From: a bacterium
Lineage (GTDB): Bacteria; UBP14; UBA6098
Direction: 5' to 3'
Assembly (NCBI GenBank): GCA_003645085.1
Contig: QNEE01000002.1
Coordinates: 1 to 46,522, forward strand
DNA length: 46,522 bases
Made by a program: the position numbers and the translations under genes. This document shows, piece by piece, positions 1-11,248 of the stretch; positions within the stretch are counted from its first letter, which is position 1, and each line of letters starts with the position of its first letter. Below the pieces are notes generated by a model. It was given only the letters and a program-made list of their open reading frames with translations. It was not told the origin of the DNA and did no database searches.

Positions 1-216
1 ATACAGGAGGCTTTTGTCGAAACGGGCGCCGTCCAGTGCGGTTTTTGCACTCCGGGGTTCGTGCTGGCGGCGTATTATCTTCTGAAACGCAACCCGAATC
101 CGACCGAGGAGGAGATAAAATCCGCGCTCGACGGCAACCTGTGCCGATGCACCGGCTATGTCAAGATAATCGAGGCTGTGAAACTCTCCGCGAAAAGGAT
201 GGCCGAAGATGCCTGA
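1..216 (+). CDS. (2Fe-2S)-binding small subunit of a xanthine dehydrogenase-family Mo-hydroxylase, 5'-truncated by the window edge
   Basis: Frame 1 translates [21 protein letters not shown]...[15 protein letters not shown]...*, with the QCGFCTPG and GNLCRCTGY motifs; the TGA at 214-216 overlaps the next ATG (209). Not in the ORF track because it has no start codon. Confidence 0.93.
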
Positions 217-2530
217 TTTCAAGAGTGTCGGCAAATCGGTCAATAAAATCGACTCGCTTTCTCTTGCGACCGGCGAGGAAAAATTTGCCGACGATTTTCG
301 TCTGGAAAGCCCGCTCTATCTCGCTTTGCTATATTCCCCACACGCACACGCGAAGATAAAAAACATCAACATCTCCAAAGCGGAAAAAACCGAAGGCGTC
401 GCCGGGGTTTATTATTTTGGGAATACACCGCAAGAATTGCATACGACAGCCGGTCAGGGTTTCCCGGAACCGTCCCCATACGACACGCGGATATTCGATA
501 AAAGGGTCCGATTCGTCGGGGACCGTGTCGCTATGGTCGCAGCAGATTCTATAGAAATCGCGAGGGAGGCACTGAAAAGAATCGAGGTCGAATACGAGAT
601 ACTCGAGCCGCTGTTCGACCCGGAACGCGCAATGGAAACCGAAGCTCCGAAACTTCATTCCGACGAAGCCTACGCGCCTATTCCCGTTACATACGACCCA
701 TCGAAAAACCTCGCGGCGGAGGTCGAGATGCAATTCGGCGACCTCGAAAAGGGGTTCGAAGAATCCGATTTCGTTATAGAACACACTTACAAAACGCAAT
801 ACGCCTCGCACTGCGCAATCGAGCCGCATACCGCGGTCGCCAGAATCGACGAGCGCGGGCGATTGATTATTATAACCGCGACACAGGTCCCGTTCCACGC
901 GAGACGCATCGTCAGCCGGACGCTCGGCATCCCGACCGGTAAAATCAGGGTAATCAAGCCGCGTATCGGCGGCGGTTTCGGCGGCAAGCAGGAGGTTTTT
1001 CTCGAGCAGCTCGTCGCGCTGGTAACGTGGGAAACGAAAAGGCCGTCGAAAATCGTCCTTTCGAGAAAAGAGGTCTTTGTCAACTCGCGGACTCGCCACC
1101 CGATGCGGGTCAGGCTCAAGACCGGCGTGAAAAACGACGGCACAATTACCGCGCTCGAACTCGACGCACTTATGAATACCGGCGCTTATGGCTCCCACGC
1201 CCTGACCGTTATGTCCAACGCCGGCGCTAAGGTTCTCCCGCTTTTTAACAAAATCCCGAATATGCGATTTATCGGAAGAACGGTATATACGAATTTCCCA
1301 GTCGGCGGCGCGTATCGCGGCTACGGCGCGACGCAGAGCTATTTCGGGTTCTGTCAGCAAATCGACATAATCGCACGAAAAACCGGCCGGGACGTCCTCG
1401 AATATTACAAAAAGTGGACTATTAAAGAGGGAGAAACCTCCGACGTTTTCCGAGCACTCGGCGAGGGCAAGGAGGGGGTCGCGCAGGTAATAAAATCCTG
1501 TAAGCTCGACGAGTGTATCGACCGCGGCGCAGAGGCTATCGGCTGGTATGAGAAACGCGGAAAGCGAATAAGAAACGGCGACAGGGTCAAGGGGATGGGC
1601 GTCGCTTGCTGCATGCAAGGCTCCGGCATCCCGAAAATCGATATGGGCGCGGCCTCGATGAAGATGAACGAGGACGGCTCGTTCAATCTCTATGTCGGCG
1701 CGACCGACCTCGGCACCGGCTCCGATACGATACTCGCACAAATCGCCGCCGAGGTCCTGAGCGTGCCGGTCGAGAAATTCATCGTCCTGTCCTCCGATAC
1801 CGACCTGACACCGTTCGACGTCGGGGCCTACGCATCCTCGACGACGTATATCTCCGGTCAGGCCGTGCGAAAATGCGCCGAGAAGATAAAAGCGCAGATA
1901 ACCGCGGTCGCAGCGGAGATGCTGGACGCCGACGAGGACGACCTCTACATCGAAAACGGCAACGTTATATGCGATAAAACCGGCGATAGCCTGTCGTTCG
2001 ACGATATCTGCTACCGCGCGCTCTACAGCGAAAATCAGTTCCAGATTCAGGCGGAAGCCTCGCATTTCGCGACGGAATCTCCTCCTCCGTTTATCGCACA
2101 GTTCGCCGAGGTCGAGGTCGACACGAAAACAGGCCGCGTCGAGGTTATCCAGTTCGTCTCCGCGGTCGATTGCGGCCAGGCGATTAATCCGAAACTCGCA
2201 GAGGGCCAGGTCGAGGGCGCAGTTGTCAACGGGATTAGCTATGCCCTGTGGGAAAAATATATTTTCAACGAAAAAGGGGAAATGACCAACCCAAATTTCG
2301 GGGATTATAAAATCTTTACGGCGGCGGATTTACCGAAGATGAAAACAATCATAGTCGGCTCTTTCGAGGAGAGCGGCCCGTTCGGCGCGAAATCGGTCGG
2401 CGAGATTGCGATAAACGGCCCGATGCCGGCGATTGCGAATGCGATTTATGACGCCGTAGGTGTGCGTATGTTCGAGGCTCCGTTCACCCCGGAAAGGGTT
2501 TTCGAGAGAATGAAAAAGGCTGACAGGTGA
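209..2530 (+). CDS. Xanthine dehydrogenase-family molybdopterin-binding large subunit (XdhD/YgfN-like)
   Basis: 773 aa; [36 protein letters not shown] and GAKSVGE (catalytic Glu) motifs. Confidence 0.93.
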
Positions 2531-2695: not shown

Positions 2696-4039
2696 TTGAT
2701 AATAAAAAATGGACAGGTTGCTCTTCCCGGTCTCGCAAAACCGGAAATCAACGATATTAAGGTCGAGAACGGGAAAATCGCCGCGATTGCGCCGAATATC
2801 ATAAGTGAAGGCGACATCATCGACGCCGATGGCCTCCTCGTTCTCCCCGGCGGAATCGACCCACACGTCCATTTCAACGACCCCGGATACGTGCACCGTG
2901 AAGATTTCTACACCGGAACGGCATTCGCGGCGTCGGGAGGGATAACCACAGTTATCGATATGCCGTGCACATCTATACCTCCTGTAACTAATCGGGCGAA
3001 TTTCGACGTAAAATATCAGGCTATAAAGGATAAAGCGGTCATCGATTACTGCCTTTTCGGGGGCATCTCCGCACAGTCTTTCGAAAGCGGTTTTCCGGGG
3101 AATATGGAGGAACTCGCCGAATGCGTTGTCGGTTTTAAGACCTATTTCTTGTCGGGAATGGAGAGTTTCGGTAGCCTGAACAAGAGCCAGTTCGAGGATG
3201 TCCTCGAGGCCGCGAGGGTTTTGAAACGTCCGGTATTGCTGCACGCCGAGGATAAGGCTTTTGTGGAAGCCGCGACAATAGAGGCAAAAAAGTCCGGCAA
3301 CGAACCGAAGGATTTTTATAATTCCCGCCCAGAAAAAGCGGAAATCCTCGCCGTATCGAAAGCCGTTCGAATCGCCGAAAGGGTTGGAGCAGAACTACAT
3401 ATCGTTCATATCGGCACGGCGGATGCCGCCGAATTAGTTCCCGGCGGGAAAATAACCTGCGAAACCGCGCCACATTATCTCGAATTCGATACCGAAGATT
3501 TTACGCGTATAGGCTCGCCGCTAAAAGTTACTCCGCCGGTGAAATCGCCAGAGAACAAATCGAAGTTGTGGAAATTCCTTGCAAATGGGAAAATTAGTTT
3601 CGTGGCTTCGGACCACGCGCCCTGCACTAAAGAAGAGAAAAACACCGGCTCGATATGGACCGACTATTCCGGCATCCCCGGCACAGGGACCATTTTTCCC
3701 TATATACTATCGGAGGGCTACTTCAAAAAGCGGCTGTCGCTAAAAAAATTTATCGAGGTTACATCCTCGAATGCAGCGAGAAGATACGGCATTTTCGACC
3801 GTAAAGGTTCTATCGAGGTCGGCAAGGACGCCGATTTTGTCCTCATCGACCCGAATCGAAGCTGGGTTGTCGAGGGTGATAAATTCCTATCGAAGGGGAA
3901 AATTACGCCGTTCGAAAGGATGGAATTAAAAGGCAAAATAATAAAGACCATCCTGCGCGGGGAGATTATATACGATACGAAACGCGGTATAACTTTGAAA
4001 AATGGATTTGGAAAACTACTATTTTCAAAATACAATTGA
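2696..4039 (+). CDS. Cyclic amidohydrolase, allantoinase-like (allantoinase/dihydroorotase/hydantoinase family)
   Basis: PGGIDPHVHFNDPG (HxH), GGITTVIDMP, VVGFKTY, LHAED, ETAPHYL, ASDHAP motifs; TTG start. Confidence 0.85.
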   Translation: MIIKNGQVALPGLAKPEINDIKVENGKIAAIAPNIISEGDIIDADGLLVLPGGIDPHVHFNDPGYVHREDFYTGTAFAASGGITTVIDMPCTSIPPVTNRANFDVKYQAIKDKAVIDYCLFGGISAQSFESGFPGNMEELAECVVGFKTYFLSGMESFGSLNKSQFEDVLEAARVLKRPVLLHAEDKAFVEAATIEAKKSGNEPKDFYNSRPEKAEILAVSKAVRIAERVGAELHIVHIGTADAAELVPGGKITCETAPHYLEFDTEDFTRIGSPLKVTPPVKSPENKSKLWKFLANGKISFVASDHAPCTKEEKNTGSIWTDYSGIPGTGTIFPYILSEGYFKKRLSLKKFIEVTSSNAARRYGIFDRKGSIEVGKDADFVLIDPNRSWVVEGDKFLSKGKITPFERMELKGKIIKTILRGEIIYDTKRGITLKNGFGKLLFSKYN

Positions 4040-5340
4040 GAACGAATAATCCAGACAAATACATAATCGCCAACGGCATTATAACCGATGGCGCCGGGTA
4101 TTTTCTCGAGAACGGGGCTATCCTTATCGAAAACGACCGGATAACCGGAGTATTGAGAACCGAGGAGATAATCGAGGTTGGTGTTGATTACATCGATGTC
4201 GGTGGCAGGCTTATTATCCCCGGGCTTCTGAACGCACACCACCACCTTTATTCGACATTCGCCGCAGGCTTATCTCCTATCGGCGAAACGAACAGCTTCG
4301 CCGGAATCCTCGAGAACCTCTGGTGGCGCCTCGACAGGGCACTGGACGAAGAATCGGTATATTATTCGGCTTTGTTGGGGCTAATCGATTCTATCAAACA
4401 CGGGGTTACGACTATTTTCGACCATCACGCCTCGATGAATTTCGTCGGCGGAAGCCTCTCGGTTATCGAGGACGCTTTCAAATTGACCGGTATCAAGGGA
4501 TTATTGTGCTTTGAGACATCGGACAGGATGGGCGAAACCGACGCGGAAAGCCATATCGCGGAGAATATCGATTTCTACGAAAAACACCGCGATTCGGAGA
4601 CCCTGAAAGGCTCTTTCGGTTTGCACGCGAACCTGACATTGAGCGAAAAAACACTCGAAAAAATTCACGAAGCCAAACCGCCCGAAATGCCGATACACGT
4701 TCATTGCGGTGAGGACAGAGCCGACCTCGAATACTGCATAGAACGCGGTTACAAAGGCCCCATCGACCGATTGAATTCCTTTGGACTGGTTAGCGGAAAT
4801 TCTATTCTCGCACATTGCATACATCTCGGTAAAAAGGATTACGGTCTAATAGACGAAATATCCCCGATAATCGTTTCGAACTCAGAATCCAACGCGAACA
4901 ACCGTGTCGGAAAGATGGATAGAAGGAGAATCAAAGACTACATCCTCGGTTCCGACGGTATGACCGGCGATATAATCGGCACGCTCCGGTCGCACTACCT
5001 TCTTGGCGAAGGTTCCGCCGAGGATTTCGACGAGTTGCGCCACGCCTTTTTCGATTATCGATACGAAATCCAGCGGAGATTCTTCCCTGATACAGCTTCT
5101 TTTACCCACGGTTCCCGCGCAGATATCGCGGTCCTCGATTACATCCCTGTAACGCCGATAAACCCCGACAACCTGATGGGTCATCTGATTTTCGGCGCGA
5201 AATCGGGTAAGGTCTATATGACGATTTCTGACGGCAAAATCCTCTATCGCGACGGCAAAATAACTTTCATCGACGAAATGGAAATAACCGAAAAAGCACA
5301 CAAGGTTGCGTCGAAACTGCACCGGAGATATTATGGCTGA
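4036..5340 (+). CDS. ssnA: SsnA-like metal-dependent amidohydrolase
   Basis: PGLLNAHHHLYS, LENLWWRLDRALD, GVTTIFDHHAS, FGLHANLT, HVHCGED, ILAHCIH; located in an xdh/ygeY cluster. Confidence 0.8.
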   Translation: MRTNNPDKYIIANGIITDGAGYFLENGAILIENDRITGVLRTEEIIEVGVDYIDVGGRLIIPGLLNAHHHLYSTFAAGLSPIGETNSFAGILENLWWRLDRALDEESVYYSALLGLIDSIKHGVTTIFDHHASMNFVGGSLSVIEDAFKLTGIKGLLCFETSDRMGETDAESHIAENIDFYEKHRDSETLKGSFGLHANLTLSEKTLEKIHEAKPPEMPIHVHCGEDRADLEYCIERGYKGPIDRLNSFGLVSGNSILAHCIHLGKKDYGLIDEISPIIVSNSESNANNRVGKMDRRRIKDYILGSDGMTGDIIGTLRSHYLLGEGSAEDFDELRHAFFDYRYEIQRRFFPDTASFTHGSRADIAVLDYIPVTPINPDNLMGHLIFGAKSGKVYMTISDGKILYRDGKITFIDEMEITEKAHKVASKLHRRYYG

Positions 5341-6430
5341 TATTTCGGTCGAGATAAACAGAATAAAATTCAAGAACCCGGTGATGCCCGCGGCTGGACC
5401 GAACGTCCGCAACGCCCGGATGATGCTGGCCGCCATAGACGGCGGCGCCGGAGGGATAGTCTCCAAAACCGTTTCGATTAAACCCGCCGATGATAAAAGG
5501 CCGACAATCCGCAAAGCGATATGCAGGGGGCTTGTCAACTCGGAGACCTGGTCGGAATTGCCCATCGAAAAAATGCTGGTCGAGCTTGCCGAAGTTAAAA
5601 ATGCGGGCGTTCCGCTGATAGTTTCTATCGGCTACAAGCCGGGCGAGGTAGCGAAACTCGGCGAACTTATCGAAAACGAAATCGCGCCGGACGGCTTCGA
5701 ATTTTCGACGCATTATACAGGCAAATCTATCGAACCTCTCGTCGAGGTCGCCAGGTCGCTCCGGAGCGCAGTCGAAGCCCCAATCTGGATGAAAATCTCG
5801 CCGAACACGCCGGATATAGAGGCTCTCGCTATCGCGGTTTCAGAATATGTAGATGCATTCGTCGCGATAAACTCGTTCGGCCCGGTTCTCGATTTCGATA
5901 TCGAAAACCCCATTCCCGAATTAGGCTCCGACTATGGCCAGGGTTGGCTTTCCGGCCCGCCGATTCTGCCTATCGCGCTGCGAATCGTCTATCAAATCCT
6001 ATCGGTTCGGGACAAACCGGTTATCGGTGTCGGAGGCATCTCGAAAGGGGTCGATGCAATTAAATTCATAATGGCGGGCGCTTCTGCTGTGCAGGTCTGT
6101 TCGGCGGCGATAAGAAGCGGCCATTCGGTTTACGGTAAAATTGCAGCCGAAATCGGCGACTGGCTAGAAACGCACGGGTATTCATCAATCGAGAAAATCG
6201 GAGGTTTATATAAAAAGAGGCTCGGCGAACAGAGAACGTTCGATAGAATCCCGGTAATGTCAATCGACCCTGAAAAGTGTATCGGCTGTAAGGCGTGTAT
6301 CGAACGGGGCATCCAAGGGGCCATTTATATGAAAAACGAAACCGCCGCTGTTATTGCGGAAAACTGTATCGGCTGCGGGTTCTGTCAGGATTTTTGCCCA
6401 CAATCCGCAATGCAATTGATGGACAGGTAA
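5333..6430 (+). CDS. Dihydroorotate/dihydropyrimidine dehydrogenase-like FMN oxidoreductase with C-terminal 2x[4Fe-4S] ferredoxin domain
   Basis: NPVMPAAGP, KTV, WMKISP, AINS, GWLSG, IGVGGI, GASAVQVCSA; C-terminal CIGCKAC and CIGCGFCQDFCP. Start placed at ATG 5333 (MADISV) rather than 5306. Confidence 0.8.
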   Translation: MADISVEINRIKFKNPVMPAAGPNVRNARMMLAAIDGGAGGIVSKTVSIKPADDKRPTIRKAICRGLVNSETWSELPIEKMLVELAEVKNAGVPLIVSIGYKPGEVAKLGELIENEIAPDGFEFSTHYTGKSIEPLVEVARSLRSAVEAPIWMKISPNTPDIEALAIAVSEYVDAFVAINSFGPVLDFDIENPIPELGSDYGQGWLSGPPILPIALRIVYQILSVRDKPVIGVGGISKGVDAIKFIMAGASAVQVCSAAIRSGHSVYGKIAAEIGDWLETHGYSSIEKIGGLYKKRLGEQRTFDRIPVMSIDPEKCIGCKACIERGIQGAIYMKNETAAVIAENCIGCGFCQDFCPQSAMQLMDR

Positions 6431-7618
6431 ATGAACATAGCACAAAAAATCAGGGAAAAAACCGAGGGCTACAGCGATTACACCGCGCGTAACCTTTCGG
6501 AAATCGTGAAAATCCAGTCGCTGAGCGGCGAGGAGGCCGCGGTTATCGAGAAACTCGAAATTCTTCTCGGCGACGCCGGTTTCGACGAAGTTTTCACGGA
6601 TGGCCTCGGCAACCTCATCGGAAAAATCGGCGACGGCCCGAAAATTCTCGCTTTCGACGCCCATATCGACACGGTCGATACCGGCGATATATCGCAGTGG
6701 GATTTCGAGCCTTTCTGCGGAGAGATTCGCGACGGCAATGTTCCTGGAAGAGGCAGTGTCGACCAAAAAGGCGGCGCGGCGGCGATGATTACCGCAGGGC
6801 GGATACTCGCGGAACTCGGCTACGACGGCGAATTCACTATTTATTTTACTTTCACAGTTATGGAGGAAGACTGCGACGGTCTCTGCTGGAACTACATCAT
6901 CGAGAAGGAGCGGATAATCCCGGATTTCGCGGTCTTGACCGAGCCGACGAATATGAATATCTATCGCGGGCACCGGGGGCGGATGGAAATCGAGTGCTAT
7001 TTTAGCGGGGAGTCATCCCACGCCAGCGCGCCCGAACGCGGCGAGAACGCGATATATAACGCCTCGCATGCAGCAATACAAATCGAGAAACTGAACGGAA
7101 GATTAAAATCGGACGATTTCCTCGGCAAAGGCACAATCGCGGCGACGCTTATCGAATCGAAATCCCCGTCACTGTGCGCGGTGCCGGATAGATGTCGAAT
7201 CCATCTCGACAGGCGGCTGACACTCGGAGAGACAAAAGAAAGCGCAATCGCCGAGGTGCGCTCAGCTATCGGCGGCGACACCAAAATCGAAATCCCGATA
7301 TATAATAAACCGAGCTACAAAGGCACGAACTTCCAACGAGAGATGTTTTTCCCGACGTGGGCGATTCCAGAAGAGCACAATCTCGTAAAAGCCGGTGTCG
7401 AATCGTATAAAAGGCTTTTCGGTGAACGACCGCGAATAGGCAAATGGGCATTTTCGACCAACGGCGTCGCGATTTGCGGAACGCACGGGATACCGTGTAT
7501 CGGTTTCGGCCCGGGAGACGAGATATTCGCCCACGCGCCGAACGAGGCCGTGCCGATAGAACATCTCGCAAAAGCGGCGGCGTTCTACGCGATGATGCCG
7601 TATATTATCGAAGGATAA
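6431..7618 (+). CDS. ygeY: YgeY-family M20 metallohydrolase
   Basis: DGLGNLIG, FDAHIDTV, GRGSVDQKGG, VMEEDCDG, RGHRGRMEI, FSTNGV, GPGDE..AHAPNE. Confidence 0.87.
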   Translation: MNIAQKIREKTEGYSDYTARNLSEIVKIQSLSGEEAAVIEKLEILLGDAGFDEVFTDGLGNLIGKIGDGPKILAFDAHIDTVDTGDISQWDFEPFCGEIRDGNVPGRGSVDQKGGAAAMITAGRILAELGYDGEFTIYFTFTVMEEDCDGLCWNYIIEKERIIPDFAVLTEPTNMNIYRGHRGRMEIECYFSGESSHASAPERGENAIYNASHAAIQIEKLNGRLKSDDFLGKGTIAATLIESKSPSLCAVPDRCRIHLDRRLTLGETKESAIAEVRSAIGGDTKIEIPIYNKPSYKGTNFQREMFFPTWAIPEEHNLVKAGVESYKRLFGERPRIGKWAFSTNGVAICGTHGIPCIGFGPGDEIFAHAPNEAVPIEHLAKAAAFYAMMPYIIEG

Positions 7619-9816: not shown

Positions 9817-9850
9817 AGCCGTGAATAGAAAGAAGGAGAACTTGATTAGA

Positions 9851-11248
9851 ATGAAAGTGAACATTGCTTTGCTTATGGTTGCACTCGTAGGCATTTGCTC
9901 CGCCGGATGGGAAAGGACATTAGGCGGAAGCGGTAATGACTATGGCGGGGCGGTCTTGAAAACTACCGATGGAGGATATGTTATTGGTGGGTCGAAAGAA
10001 ACATCGGCTTATTCAGGTATTTATGATGCGTATCTTATAAAAACAAATTCATCTGGTATTCCCGTCTGGTCTGGCACTTACGGAACAAGCGATTATGATT
10101 ATGGCTGTTCAATAGCTACGTCTCTAGATGGAGGGTATGTAATAGCGGGATATACGTGGGCATCAACAAGAGGATACGATTTCTATCTTGTCAAAACTAA
10201 TTCGTCGGGGAGTATGTTATGGTCCAGAACATATGGTAGTAGTAATCATGACTTTGCTAGGTCTATTGCACGCACGTCGGATGGAGGTTATATTATGGCC
10301 GGATATACATTTGAAACGGATCCATATTTAAATGATATTTATGTTGTCAAAACGAATTCTTCAGGGGATGAGATTTGGAACAAAACGTTTAGTGGAAGTT
10401 TTAATTATGTAGCTTTGTCAATAATTCAGACAACAGACGGGGGATATATAATCGCAGGATATACAGATTCGTTAGGCGCAGGAGAAGACGACGTTTACAT
10501 CATTAAGACCAACTCATCTGGGAATATTGCATGGACAAGAATAATTGACTTGGGATCAAGAGACGTCGCTTCTTCCATTTTACAAACAACAGCAGGCGAT
10601 TACTTAATAACTGGTTCTAGTGAATCAGTAGGATTAGGTGAATCCGATTTATTCATTTTAAAACTTAACTCTTCGGGTAGTACTCAATGGATTAAAACTT
10701 ACGGAGGCAGTGATGATGACAATGGGGCTTCTATATCCAGAACTTCCGACAACGGATTTATTATAGTAGGTTCAACACAATCCTACGGAGCCGGCGAATA
10801 TGATGTTTATCTCCTGAAAACTAATTCATCAGGCGACACTTTATGGACGCAAACTTACGGTAGAATAAGCAATGATTATGGTACATCAGTTTCACAGACA
10901 TCGGATGGAGGTTATATTATTGGAGGGACTACTGAATCTTTTGGTTCAGGCGGTTCGGATATTTATCTCATCAAGGTTGACGCCGTTGGGATAGTTGAAT
11001 GGGTAAACCAAAAACCACGTAACCTTTTCATTTCCGCCTATCCAAATCCCTTCAATTCCGCTTGCCGTATTTCTGCGCCGGAGAATGCCGTCGTAGAAAT
11101 ATTCGATATAAACGGCAGGAGTATTGCAGAGTTCGATGGCGGAGACCGGATATGGAAACCGGAGGCATCGGTTGGCGGCGGTGTATATCTGGTCAGGGCA
11201 AAAATCGGGGATAAGGATATTACGAAACGCGTCGTTTATTTGAAATGA
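9851..11248 (+). CDS. Secreted 7-repeat beta-propeller-like protein with T9SS/Por-type (FlgD-Ig-like) C-terminal sorting domain
   Basis: Signal peptide; 7 repeats of W..TYG...D...S...T.DGGY.I.G.T......D.Y..KTNSSG; CTD YPNPFNS...EIFDINGR...W...GVYLVRA...KRVVYLK. Start could be TTG 9842 or ATG 9851. Confidence 0.8.
   Translation: MKVNIALLMVALVGICSAGWERTLGGSGNDYGGAVLKTTDGGYVIGGSKETSAYSGIYDAYLIKTNSSGIPVWSGTYGTSDYDYGCSIATSLDGGYVIAGYTWASTRGYDFYLVKTNSSGSMLWSRTYGSSNHDFARSIARTSDGGYIMAGYTFETDPYLNDIYVVKTNSSGDEIWNKTFSGSFNYVALSIIQTTDGGYIIAGYTDSLGAGEDDVYIIKTNSSGNIAWTRIIDLGSRDVASSILQTTAGDYLITGSSESVGLGESDLFILKLNSSGSTQWIKTYGGSDDDNGASISRTSDNGFIIVGSTQSYGAGEYDVYLLKTNSSGDTLWTQTYGRISNDYGTSVSQTSDGGYIIGGTTESFGSGGSDIYLIKVDAVGIVEWVNQKPRNLFISAYPNPFNSACRISAPENAVVEIFDINGRSIAEFDGGDRIWKPEASVGGGVYLVRAKIGDKDITKRVVYLK

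Follow-up and report, generated by a model that had tools for sequence, protein, structure and literature searches.

The 46,522-nt window analyzed here (contig QNEE01000002.1 of assembly GCA_003645085.1, from a bacterium of the GTDB lineage UBP14) contains, at positions 5333..6430 of the forward strand, a gene encoding a 365-aa flavoprotein that is most probably a UacX-type reductase for 2,8-dioxopurine (isoxanthine), acting in the reductive breakdown of uric acid in place of YgfK. In this pathway, an Xdh homologue first reduces urate to 2,8-dioxopurine, which is the substrate of a second reduction by YgfK; the ring is then opened by SsnA, with which this second reduction has to be coupled (Li 2025, PMC12507026; Liu 2025, 10.1101/2025.04.24.650524). 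The selectivity of YgfK for 2,8-dioxopurine has been demonstrated (10.1101/2025.04.24.650524). The family to which the window protein belongs is already published, so that the idea is not new. It was described by Barba et al. (2013) as the “dehydrogenase X1” clade of the dihydroorotate dehydrogenase (DHODH)/dihydropyrimidine dehydrogenase (DPD) superfamily, adjoining hyuA, ygeW, ygeY, ssnA, xdhABC, a permease and yqeA, and absent from E. coli (PMC4016543). Then, UacX was presented as the C. difficile PF01180 substitute for YgfK (Q181U4), with ferredoxin as the proposed electron donor (PMC12507026). The new points reported here are modest, namely an invariant motif lacking the catalytic Cys and a specific kinship to the N-domain of YgfK; the missing Cys is mentioned in neither PMC12507026 nor PMC4016543. 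Besides, it was not until 2025 that the anaerobic urate pathway used by bacteria of the gut and the environment was resolved, and neither an activity nor a mechanism has been published for its variant with a ferredoxin-dependent reductase. With the window gene, this variant gains a member of WOR-3-like origin.

The open reading frame is stop-free over 365 codons and its ATG at 5333 overlaps the stop of the SsnA gene (junction ATGGCTGA). Because of this overlap, of a GGAG located 6–10 nt upstream and of the MADLSV with which homologues begin, ATG 5333 was considered as the right start. DHO_dh (97 bits) and Fer4 were the only domains found by Pfam, corresponding to a flavin mononucleotide (FMN) TIM barrel followed by a C-terminal dicluster ferredoxin domain for two [4Fe-4S] clusters (Fer4_21/Fer4_7; residues 310–361, 6260..6415, forward strand). 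No FAD/NAD(P)H domain was detected. For the AlphaFold2 model (pLDDT 92.9, built on 36 homologues), the best match in Foldseek was pig DPD over its FMN part and its C-terminal Fe-S part (TMq 0.83), with class 1A DHODH coming next. The protein thus shares its fold and FMN-binding residues with PreA, the FMN domain of pig DPD and class 1 DHODH, and its dicluster domain with PreA/DPD. However, it differs from them by the lack of the NxSCP loop and of a PreT or PyrK partner, and by equivalog scores of about half the cut-offs. Indeed, the top NCBIfam model, PreA (NF006183), gave 166.8 bits vs. a cut-off of 335, and the class 1B PyrD model (NF005574) 165.1 bits vs. 269.

The catalytic Cys is truly absent from the protein, and this absence is a trait of the family, not an accident of a single sequence. 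The E-x-N-x-S-C-P-[NHQ] motif, found in 32/32 PyrD/PreA controls and read ECNFSCPQ in E. coli PreA, is replaced by E-F-S-T-H-Y (residues 123–128; 5699..5716, forward strand) within the segment DGFEFSTHYTG (residues 120–130). In the hhalign comparison with the PyrD/PreA profile, S125 fell on the Asn and H127 on the Ser, while the Cys and the eight residues following it were deleted. The β4-α4 loop is about 9 residues shorter according to the family alignment, hhalign and the model, in which β4 (residues 121–124, GFEF) is followed by a 9-residue loop and a helix (residues 134–146). Since E123, S125, H127 and Y128 are invariant in 64/64 aligned relatives (34–100% identity), the loss of the Cys cannot be attributed to chance. 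In these 64 relatives, invariance extends to K45, N69, K154 and N180, which are residues for FMN and substrate, and to the SG and GG motifs. The pattern E-x-S-x-H-Y after strand 4, without NxSCP, provides an annotation signature telling these reductases from PyrD/PreA.

The sequence-only reading that preceded this work had pointed to this missing Cys, to the absence of the GltD-like module fused in YgfK, and to a resemblance between the N-terminus and that of YgfK, and all three observations were confirmed. The motif PVMPAAGP (residues 16–23; 5378..5401, forward strand), whose PAAGP is common to YgfK, is followed by KTV at residues 45–47, and residues 16–49 aligned by BLASTP with YgfK 54–87 at 41% identity. 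With E. coli YgfK as a single sequence, hhalign gave a probability of no more than 9%, and the match became significant only at the profile level. When a 16-sequence profile of the YgfK N-domain was compared with the family of the window protein (hereafter the STHY family), the probability reached 96–97% (E 1.2e-11, 290 columns), against E 0.007 between the YgfK N-domain profile and a 32-sequence PyrD/PreA profile, and E 7e-55 between the STHY family and the latter. The invariant YgfK motifs PAAGP, NxEWS[TA]E, [LV]ST[LM]HG[CA], KxNPT and Y[ML]SG find their parallels in P[AT]AGP, NxE[TL]WSE, ExSxHY, KxSP and WxSG of the STHY family. From these profiles, the STHY family bridges the YgfK N-domain to the DHODH fold, and a previously “unknown” domain is now tied to the UacX/STHY family. 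The short ST(x)H loop common to both types of reductase is likely due to common descent, convergence being the less likely origin. The label of stand-alone YgfK-type reductase was retained only in part: the protein replaces YgfK, but it is overall PreA/PyrD-like (E 7e-55 vs. 1e-11 for YgfK), and the true stand-alone YgfK N-domain is a different protein, occurring in other organisms.

YgfK, also named DOPOR (E. coli b2878, NAD(P)H:2,8-dioxopurine oxidoreductase), occupies the same pathway position as the 365-aa protein, of which its N-domain is a remote homologue, and a short loop follows β4 in both. In contrast, YgfK is about 1030 aa long with large barrel insertions, a GltD-like FAD/NAD(P)H module and Fe-S motifs of its own, and it mostly reads HGC after ST where the STHY family reads HY. 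A TIGR03315 scan of the host genome (E <= 0.001) gave no match at the 365-aa gene, membership in YgfK being set at 835 bits. It may tentatively be proposed, at somewhat less than even chances, that UacX-type proteins and the YgfK N-domain form one DHODH-fold lineage of 2,8-dioxopurine reductases, in which the Cys loop gave way to a short S-T-(x)-H loop, the proton being donated by His (together with Tyr in UacX). Instead of having been recruited independently, YgfK would then derive from a UacX-like barrel by the acquisition of insertions and of the fused NAD(P)H module, and the same chassis would have been reused in paralogues outside purine clusters.

The genomic context places the gene in the position of ygfK. 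The genes of the window follow the same-strand order XdhC'-Xdh(D-like)-cyclic amidohydrolase-SsnA-X-YgeY, X being the 365-aa gene, and the operon holds the steps of the published pathway, i.e., Xdh(D-like), cyclic amidohydrolase, SsnA and YgeY, all but YgfK. A scan of species-representative genomes yielded 77 loci, 59 of them at >=49% identity, among which 50 had enough upstream DNA; SsnA was found directly upstream in 46 of these 50 relatives, from six phyla. The order XdhC-Xdh-amidohydrolase-SsnA-X-YgeY-YgeW-like recurs in WOR-3, Chloroflexota, Spirochaetota, Synergistota, Desulfuromonadaceae and Acidobacteriota. In a quick IQ-TREE phylogeny, from which rows L019, L084, L086 and L159 were excluded as truncated sequences, the family formed one clade against PreA/PyrD. 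The host genome (G000) is a metagenome-assembled genome (MAG), 90% complete, with WOR-3/Hydrothermota as nearest relatives, and no YgfK over the TIGR03315 cut-off was found in it at this completeness. Full YgfK was also missing from all 51 carrier genomes tested, the host included, the MAGs among them being incomplete.

SsnA was present in 34 of 399 evenly sampled Clostridia genomes, which allowed the two reductases to be compared within one class. Full-length YgfK was encoded at 12/34 SsnA loci, a stand-alone YgfK N-domain of about 565 aa at 4/34 and a homologue of the 365-aa protein at 17/34, while neither was seen at 1/34, a locus cut by the contig end. No locus (0/34) carried both YgfK and the homologue, and no YgfK was found elsewhere in the 17 genomes with the homologue. 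These 17 homologues, 34–41% identical to the window protein, all carry E[LVI]STHY and two Fer4 motifs. Hence the expectation of the earlier reading, that homologues with STHY occur next to ssnA/ygeY only when ygfK is absent, was borne out, full YgfK being found in 0/69 carrier genomes at the TIGR03315 cut-off, Clostridia and incomplete MAGs included. The 69 genomes correspond to 1+3+48+17, where 48 stands for 47 plus G001, a genome not counted as a carrier next to SsnA. The window protein resembles UacX/dehydrogenase X1 by its PF01180 FMN barrel, its Fe-S domain and its lack of a FAD/NAD(P)H module, and its gene by being encoded with ssnA, hyuA, ygeY and xdh in ygfK's place. It differs from UacX by the gene order, X following SsnA with an 8-nt overlap, by a Gly at a cluster ligand (position 326), and by its host, a WOR-3/Caldifarciminota-like MAG whose phylum is not listed in the network of the UacX paper.

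A mechanism can be proposed by analogy with DPD. While the fold, the motifs, the synteny and the mutual exclusion with YgfK are results of the present analysis, the substrate, the electron donor and the parts played by His and Tyr are inferred. The C6-H, C5 and C4 of 2,8-dioxopurine would take the places of uracil C6, C5 and C4, the imidazolone ring being fused to the C4-C5 side. A low-potential donor, probably ferredoxin, would pass electrons to FMN by way of the C-terminal [4Fe-4S] clusters; entry through these clusters from ferredoxin is the most likely route, and the ferredoxin-type input put forward in the earlier reading is probably right, given the C-terminal ferredoxin-type domain. The hydride of FMNH2 would then be transferred to C6 of 2,8-dioxopurine and a proton to C5, as DPD does on uracil. 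This regiochemistry is suggested by the products of SsnA, ureidomethyl-hydantoin (UMH) and 5-ureido-dihydrouracil (5UDU), in which C5-C6 is already saturated and after which only hydrolases and a transferase act (PMC12507026). The acid replacing the Cys, carried in DPD by a long mobile loop, would likely be His127 or Tyr128. Because the fused ring would sit where DPD has the Asn and Cys of its NxSCP loop, a shorter Ser/His/Tyr loop is a plausible adaptation: together with the invariant Ser125, His127 and Tyr128, it probably makes room for the imidazolone ring and supplies the proton. The comparison thus names three residues for mutation. Finally, the co-translated SsnA would open the ring, pulling an unfavourable reduction forward. 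PydAc, the ferredoxin-dependent DPD of Clostridium chromiireducens, offers a parallel, as it is also devoid of NAD(P)H/FAD domains and accepts electrons, via Fe-S clusters, from either ferredoxin or methyl viologen (PMC7332683). However, PydAc holds four clusters in two ferredoxin domains and its substrate is uracil, whereas the 365-aa protein has the C-terminal domain only.

The alternative that survives best, although improbable, is a different N-heterocycle as substrate (xanthine, 6,8-dioxopurine or urate itself), the multi-phylum cluster being then a variant of the pathway. A family without published biochemical activity, an allantoinase-like enzyme in the HyuA position, the lack of YgeX in the host genome and paralogues with the same motif in other contexts are all compatible with it. 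Opposed to these are the XdhD-like Mo subunit, the conservation of SsnA, YgeY and a YgeW-like gene, and active-site motifs held in common with a reductase as selective as YgfK.

It is very unlikely that the gene encodes a ferredoxin-dependent dihydropyrimidine dehydrogenase (PreA/PydAc-like) for the reduction of uracil or thymine, as part of a Pyd-type cluster in which the cyclic amidohydrolase would serve as dihydropyrimidinase and the M20 hydrolase as ureidopropionase. These two neighbours, the best NCBIfam and fold matches (PreA and pig DPD) and the PydAc precedent would fit such an enzyme. However, the PreA score falls far below its cut-off, the Cys loop and the NxSCP Asn are missing from 64/64 relatives, and the N-terminal ferredoxin domain of PydAc is lacking. 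Moreover, the gene lies among SsnA, a YgeY equivalog (491 bits, cut-off 321) and an XdhD-like Mo enzyme, and its distribution is complementary to that of YgfK. Just as slight is the chance that the enzyme acts after SsnA, reducing a ring-opened purine intermediate, as the sequence-only reading had supposed. The gene is indeed downstream of ssnA and translationally coupled to it, but gene order varies, ygfK preceding ssnA in E. coli and Clostridia, and the sole reduction following the Xdh step in the reconstituted pathway precedes SsnA (PMC12507026). The YgfK step takes place on intact 2,8-dioxopurine (PMC12507026; 10.1101/2025.04.24.650524), and this part of the earlier proposal was abandoned. 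A class 1B dihydroorotate dehydrogenase (PyrD) with a fused Fe-S domain, to which DHO_dh and the NF005574 match might point, can practically be dismissed in view of the sub-threshold score, the missing catalytic Cys, the absence of a PyrK neighbour and a canonical PyrD encoded separately on contig C215 of the host genome.

Several observations weigh against the assignment to the UacX-type 2,8-dioxopurine reductases. First, CdUacX was purified and an assay described, but the text and supplement of PMC12507026 give no result for UacX activity. Second, orthology with CdUacX (Q181U4) would rest on a proxy locus, L144, whose protein has 41% identity to the window protein and the same motif, and whose cluster (Xdh, HyuA, X, permease, SsnA, a UacY-like Amidohydro_3 protein, M20 peptidase and YgeX) has the composition reported for C. 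difficile in PMC12507026. Third, YgeX (diaminopropionate ammonia-lyase) was not found in the host MAG, at its completeness of 90%. Fourth, a Clostridium paralogue clade (L071-L080, e.g., L074:9983-11083) reads EISTHYME.D and has a GAPDH-like gene as neighbour but no purine genes around it, and in C. carboxidivorans it coexists with a YgfK-SsnA cluster (L168); with such paralogues outside purine clusters, the motif alone does not fix the substrate. Fifth, a GGC codon (6308..6310, forward strand) places Gly326 at the fourth Cys of the first CxxCxxCxxxC motif, a position occupied by Cys in 59/60 relatives and in P0002, a 99%-identical protein from another assembly. This Gly may be an error of the MAG consensus or assembly, or a real variant that has lost a [4Fe-4S] ligand.

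The window opens with an XdhC-type small Fe-S subunit, of which the contig end has left only the C-terminal part (1..180, tblastn 50% identity to E. coli XdhC), followed by the large subunit of a Mo-hydroxylase (209..2530), nearer to E. coli XdhD (38%) than to XdhA (33%). The cyclic amidohydrolase in the HyuA position (2696..4039) is allantoinase-like (TIGR03178, 370.7 bits, cut-off 357.85) and 29% identical to E. coli HyuA, an arrangement conserved throughout the multi-phylum cluster. The SsnA-like amidohydrolase (4036..5340, NF005540, 406.9 bits) ends in the 8-nt overlap with the 365-aa gene, and the YgeY-family M20 hydrolase (6431..7618, NF009555, 491.5 bits, cut-off 321) begins on the base after its stop (TAAATG); all five genes are on the forward strand. 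The remaining genes of the window are housekeeping, and neither Rnf nor a ferredoxin source was found in it. A beta-propeller protein with a type IX secretion system (T9SS) C-terminal sorting domain, at 9821-11248, fits a host of the FCB group (WOR-3-like). In relatives a YgeW-like gene comes after ygeY, but not at the locus of the window; elsewhere in the host genome, a YgeW-like carbamoyltransferase was found on C17 (C17:17441-18406), a carbamate kinase on C58 and a second Xdh trio on C8.

No PreT match was found in the window, and no PreT or PyrK partner subunit lies near the 365-aa gene. The only GltD-like genes of the host genome are one in an NfnAB-like pair on C163 and another on C56. 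The C163 pair (L001:641-2901) consists of a 465-aa GltD-like protein (TIGR01316 over cut-off) beside a PyrK-like FAD/NAD protein of 279 aa, and it is a possible link between the NAD(P)H and ferredoxin pools. A PreT-like partner was thus rejected, since the only close GltD-like gene, that of C163, pairs with the PyrK-like gene, as in NfnAB, on a different contig.

About 25 of the 77 relatives, from Synergistota and many Spirochaetia (L040-L065, e.g., L040:10001-10924), are proteins of about 300 aa without the ferredoxin domain. Many of these short forms, mainly in Synergistota, are directly followed by a second Xdh trio, made of a large subunit (about 28% identical) with Fe-S and FAD subunits; in several Spirochaetia, YgeY lies in between and the trio further downstream. 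This second trio may be the electron partner of the short forms. At four of the Clostridia SsnA loci (L149:7105-8499, L150, L151 and L153), stand-alone YgfK N-domain proteins of about 565 aa were found instead of a YgfK of about 1005 aa, corresponding to a split or truncated DOPOR without the GltD-like module. In a Spirochaetota genome, a distant STHY protein adjoins ygeY (L085), and the same genome also encodes, at L099 (G051:C48:120371-121582), a 795-aa open reading frame whose match to YgfK is confined to the N-domain (530 bits, model positions 3-398).

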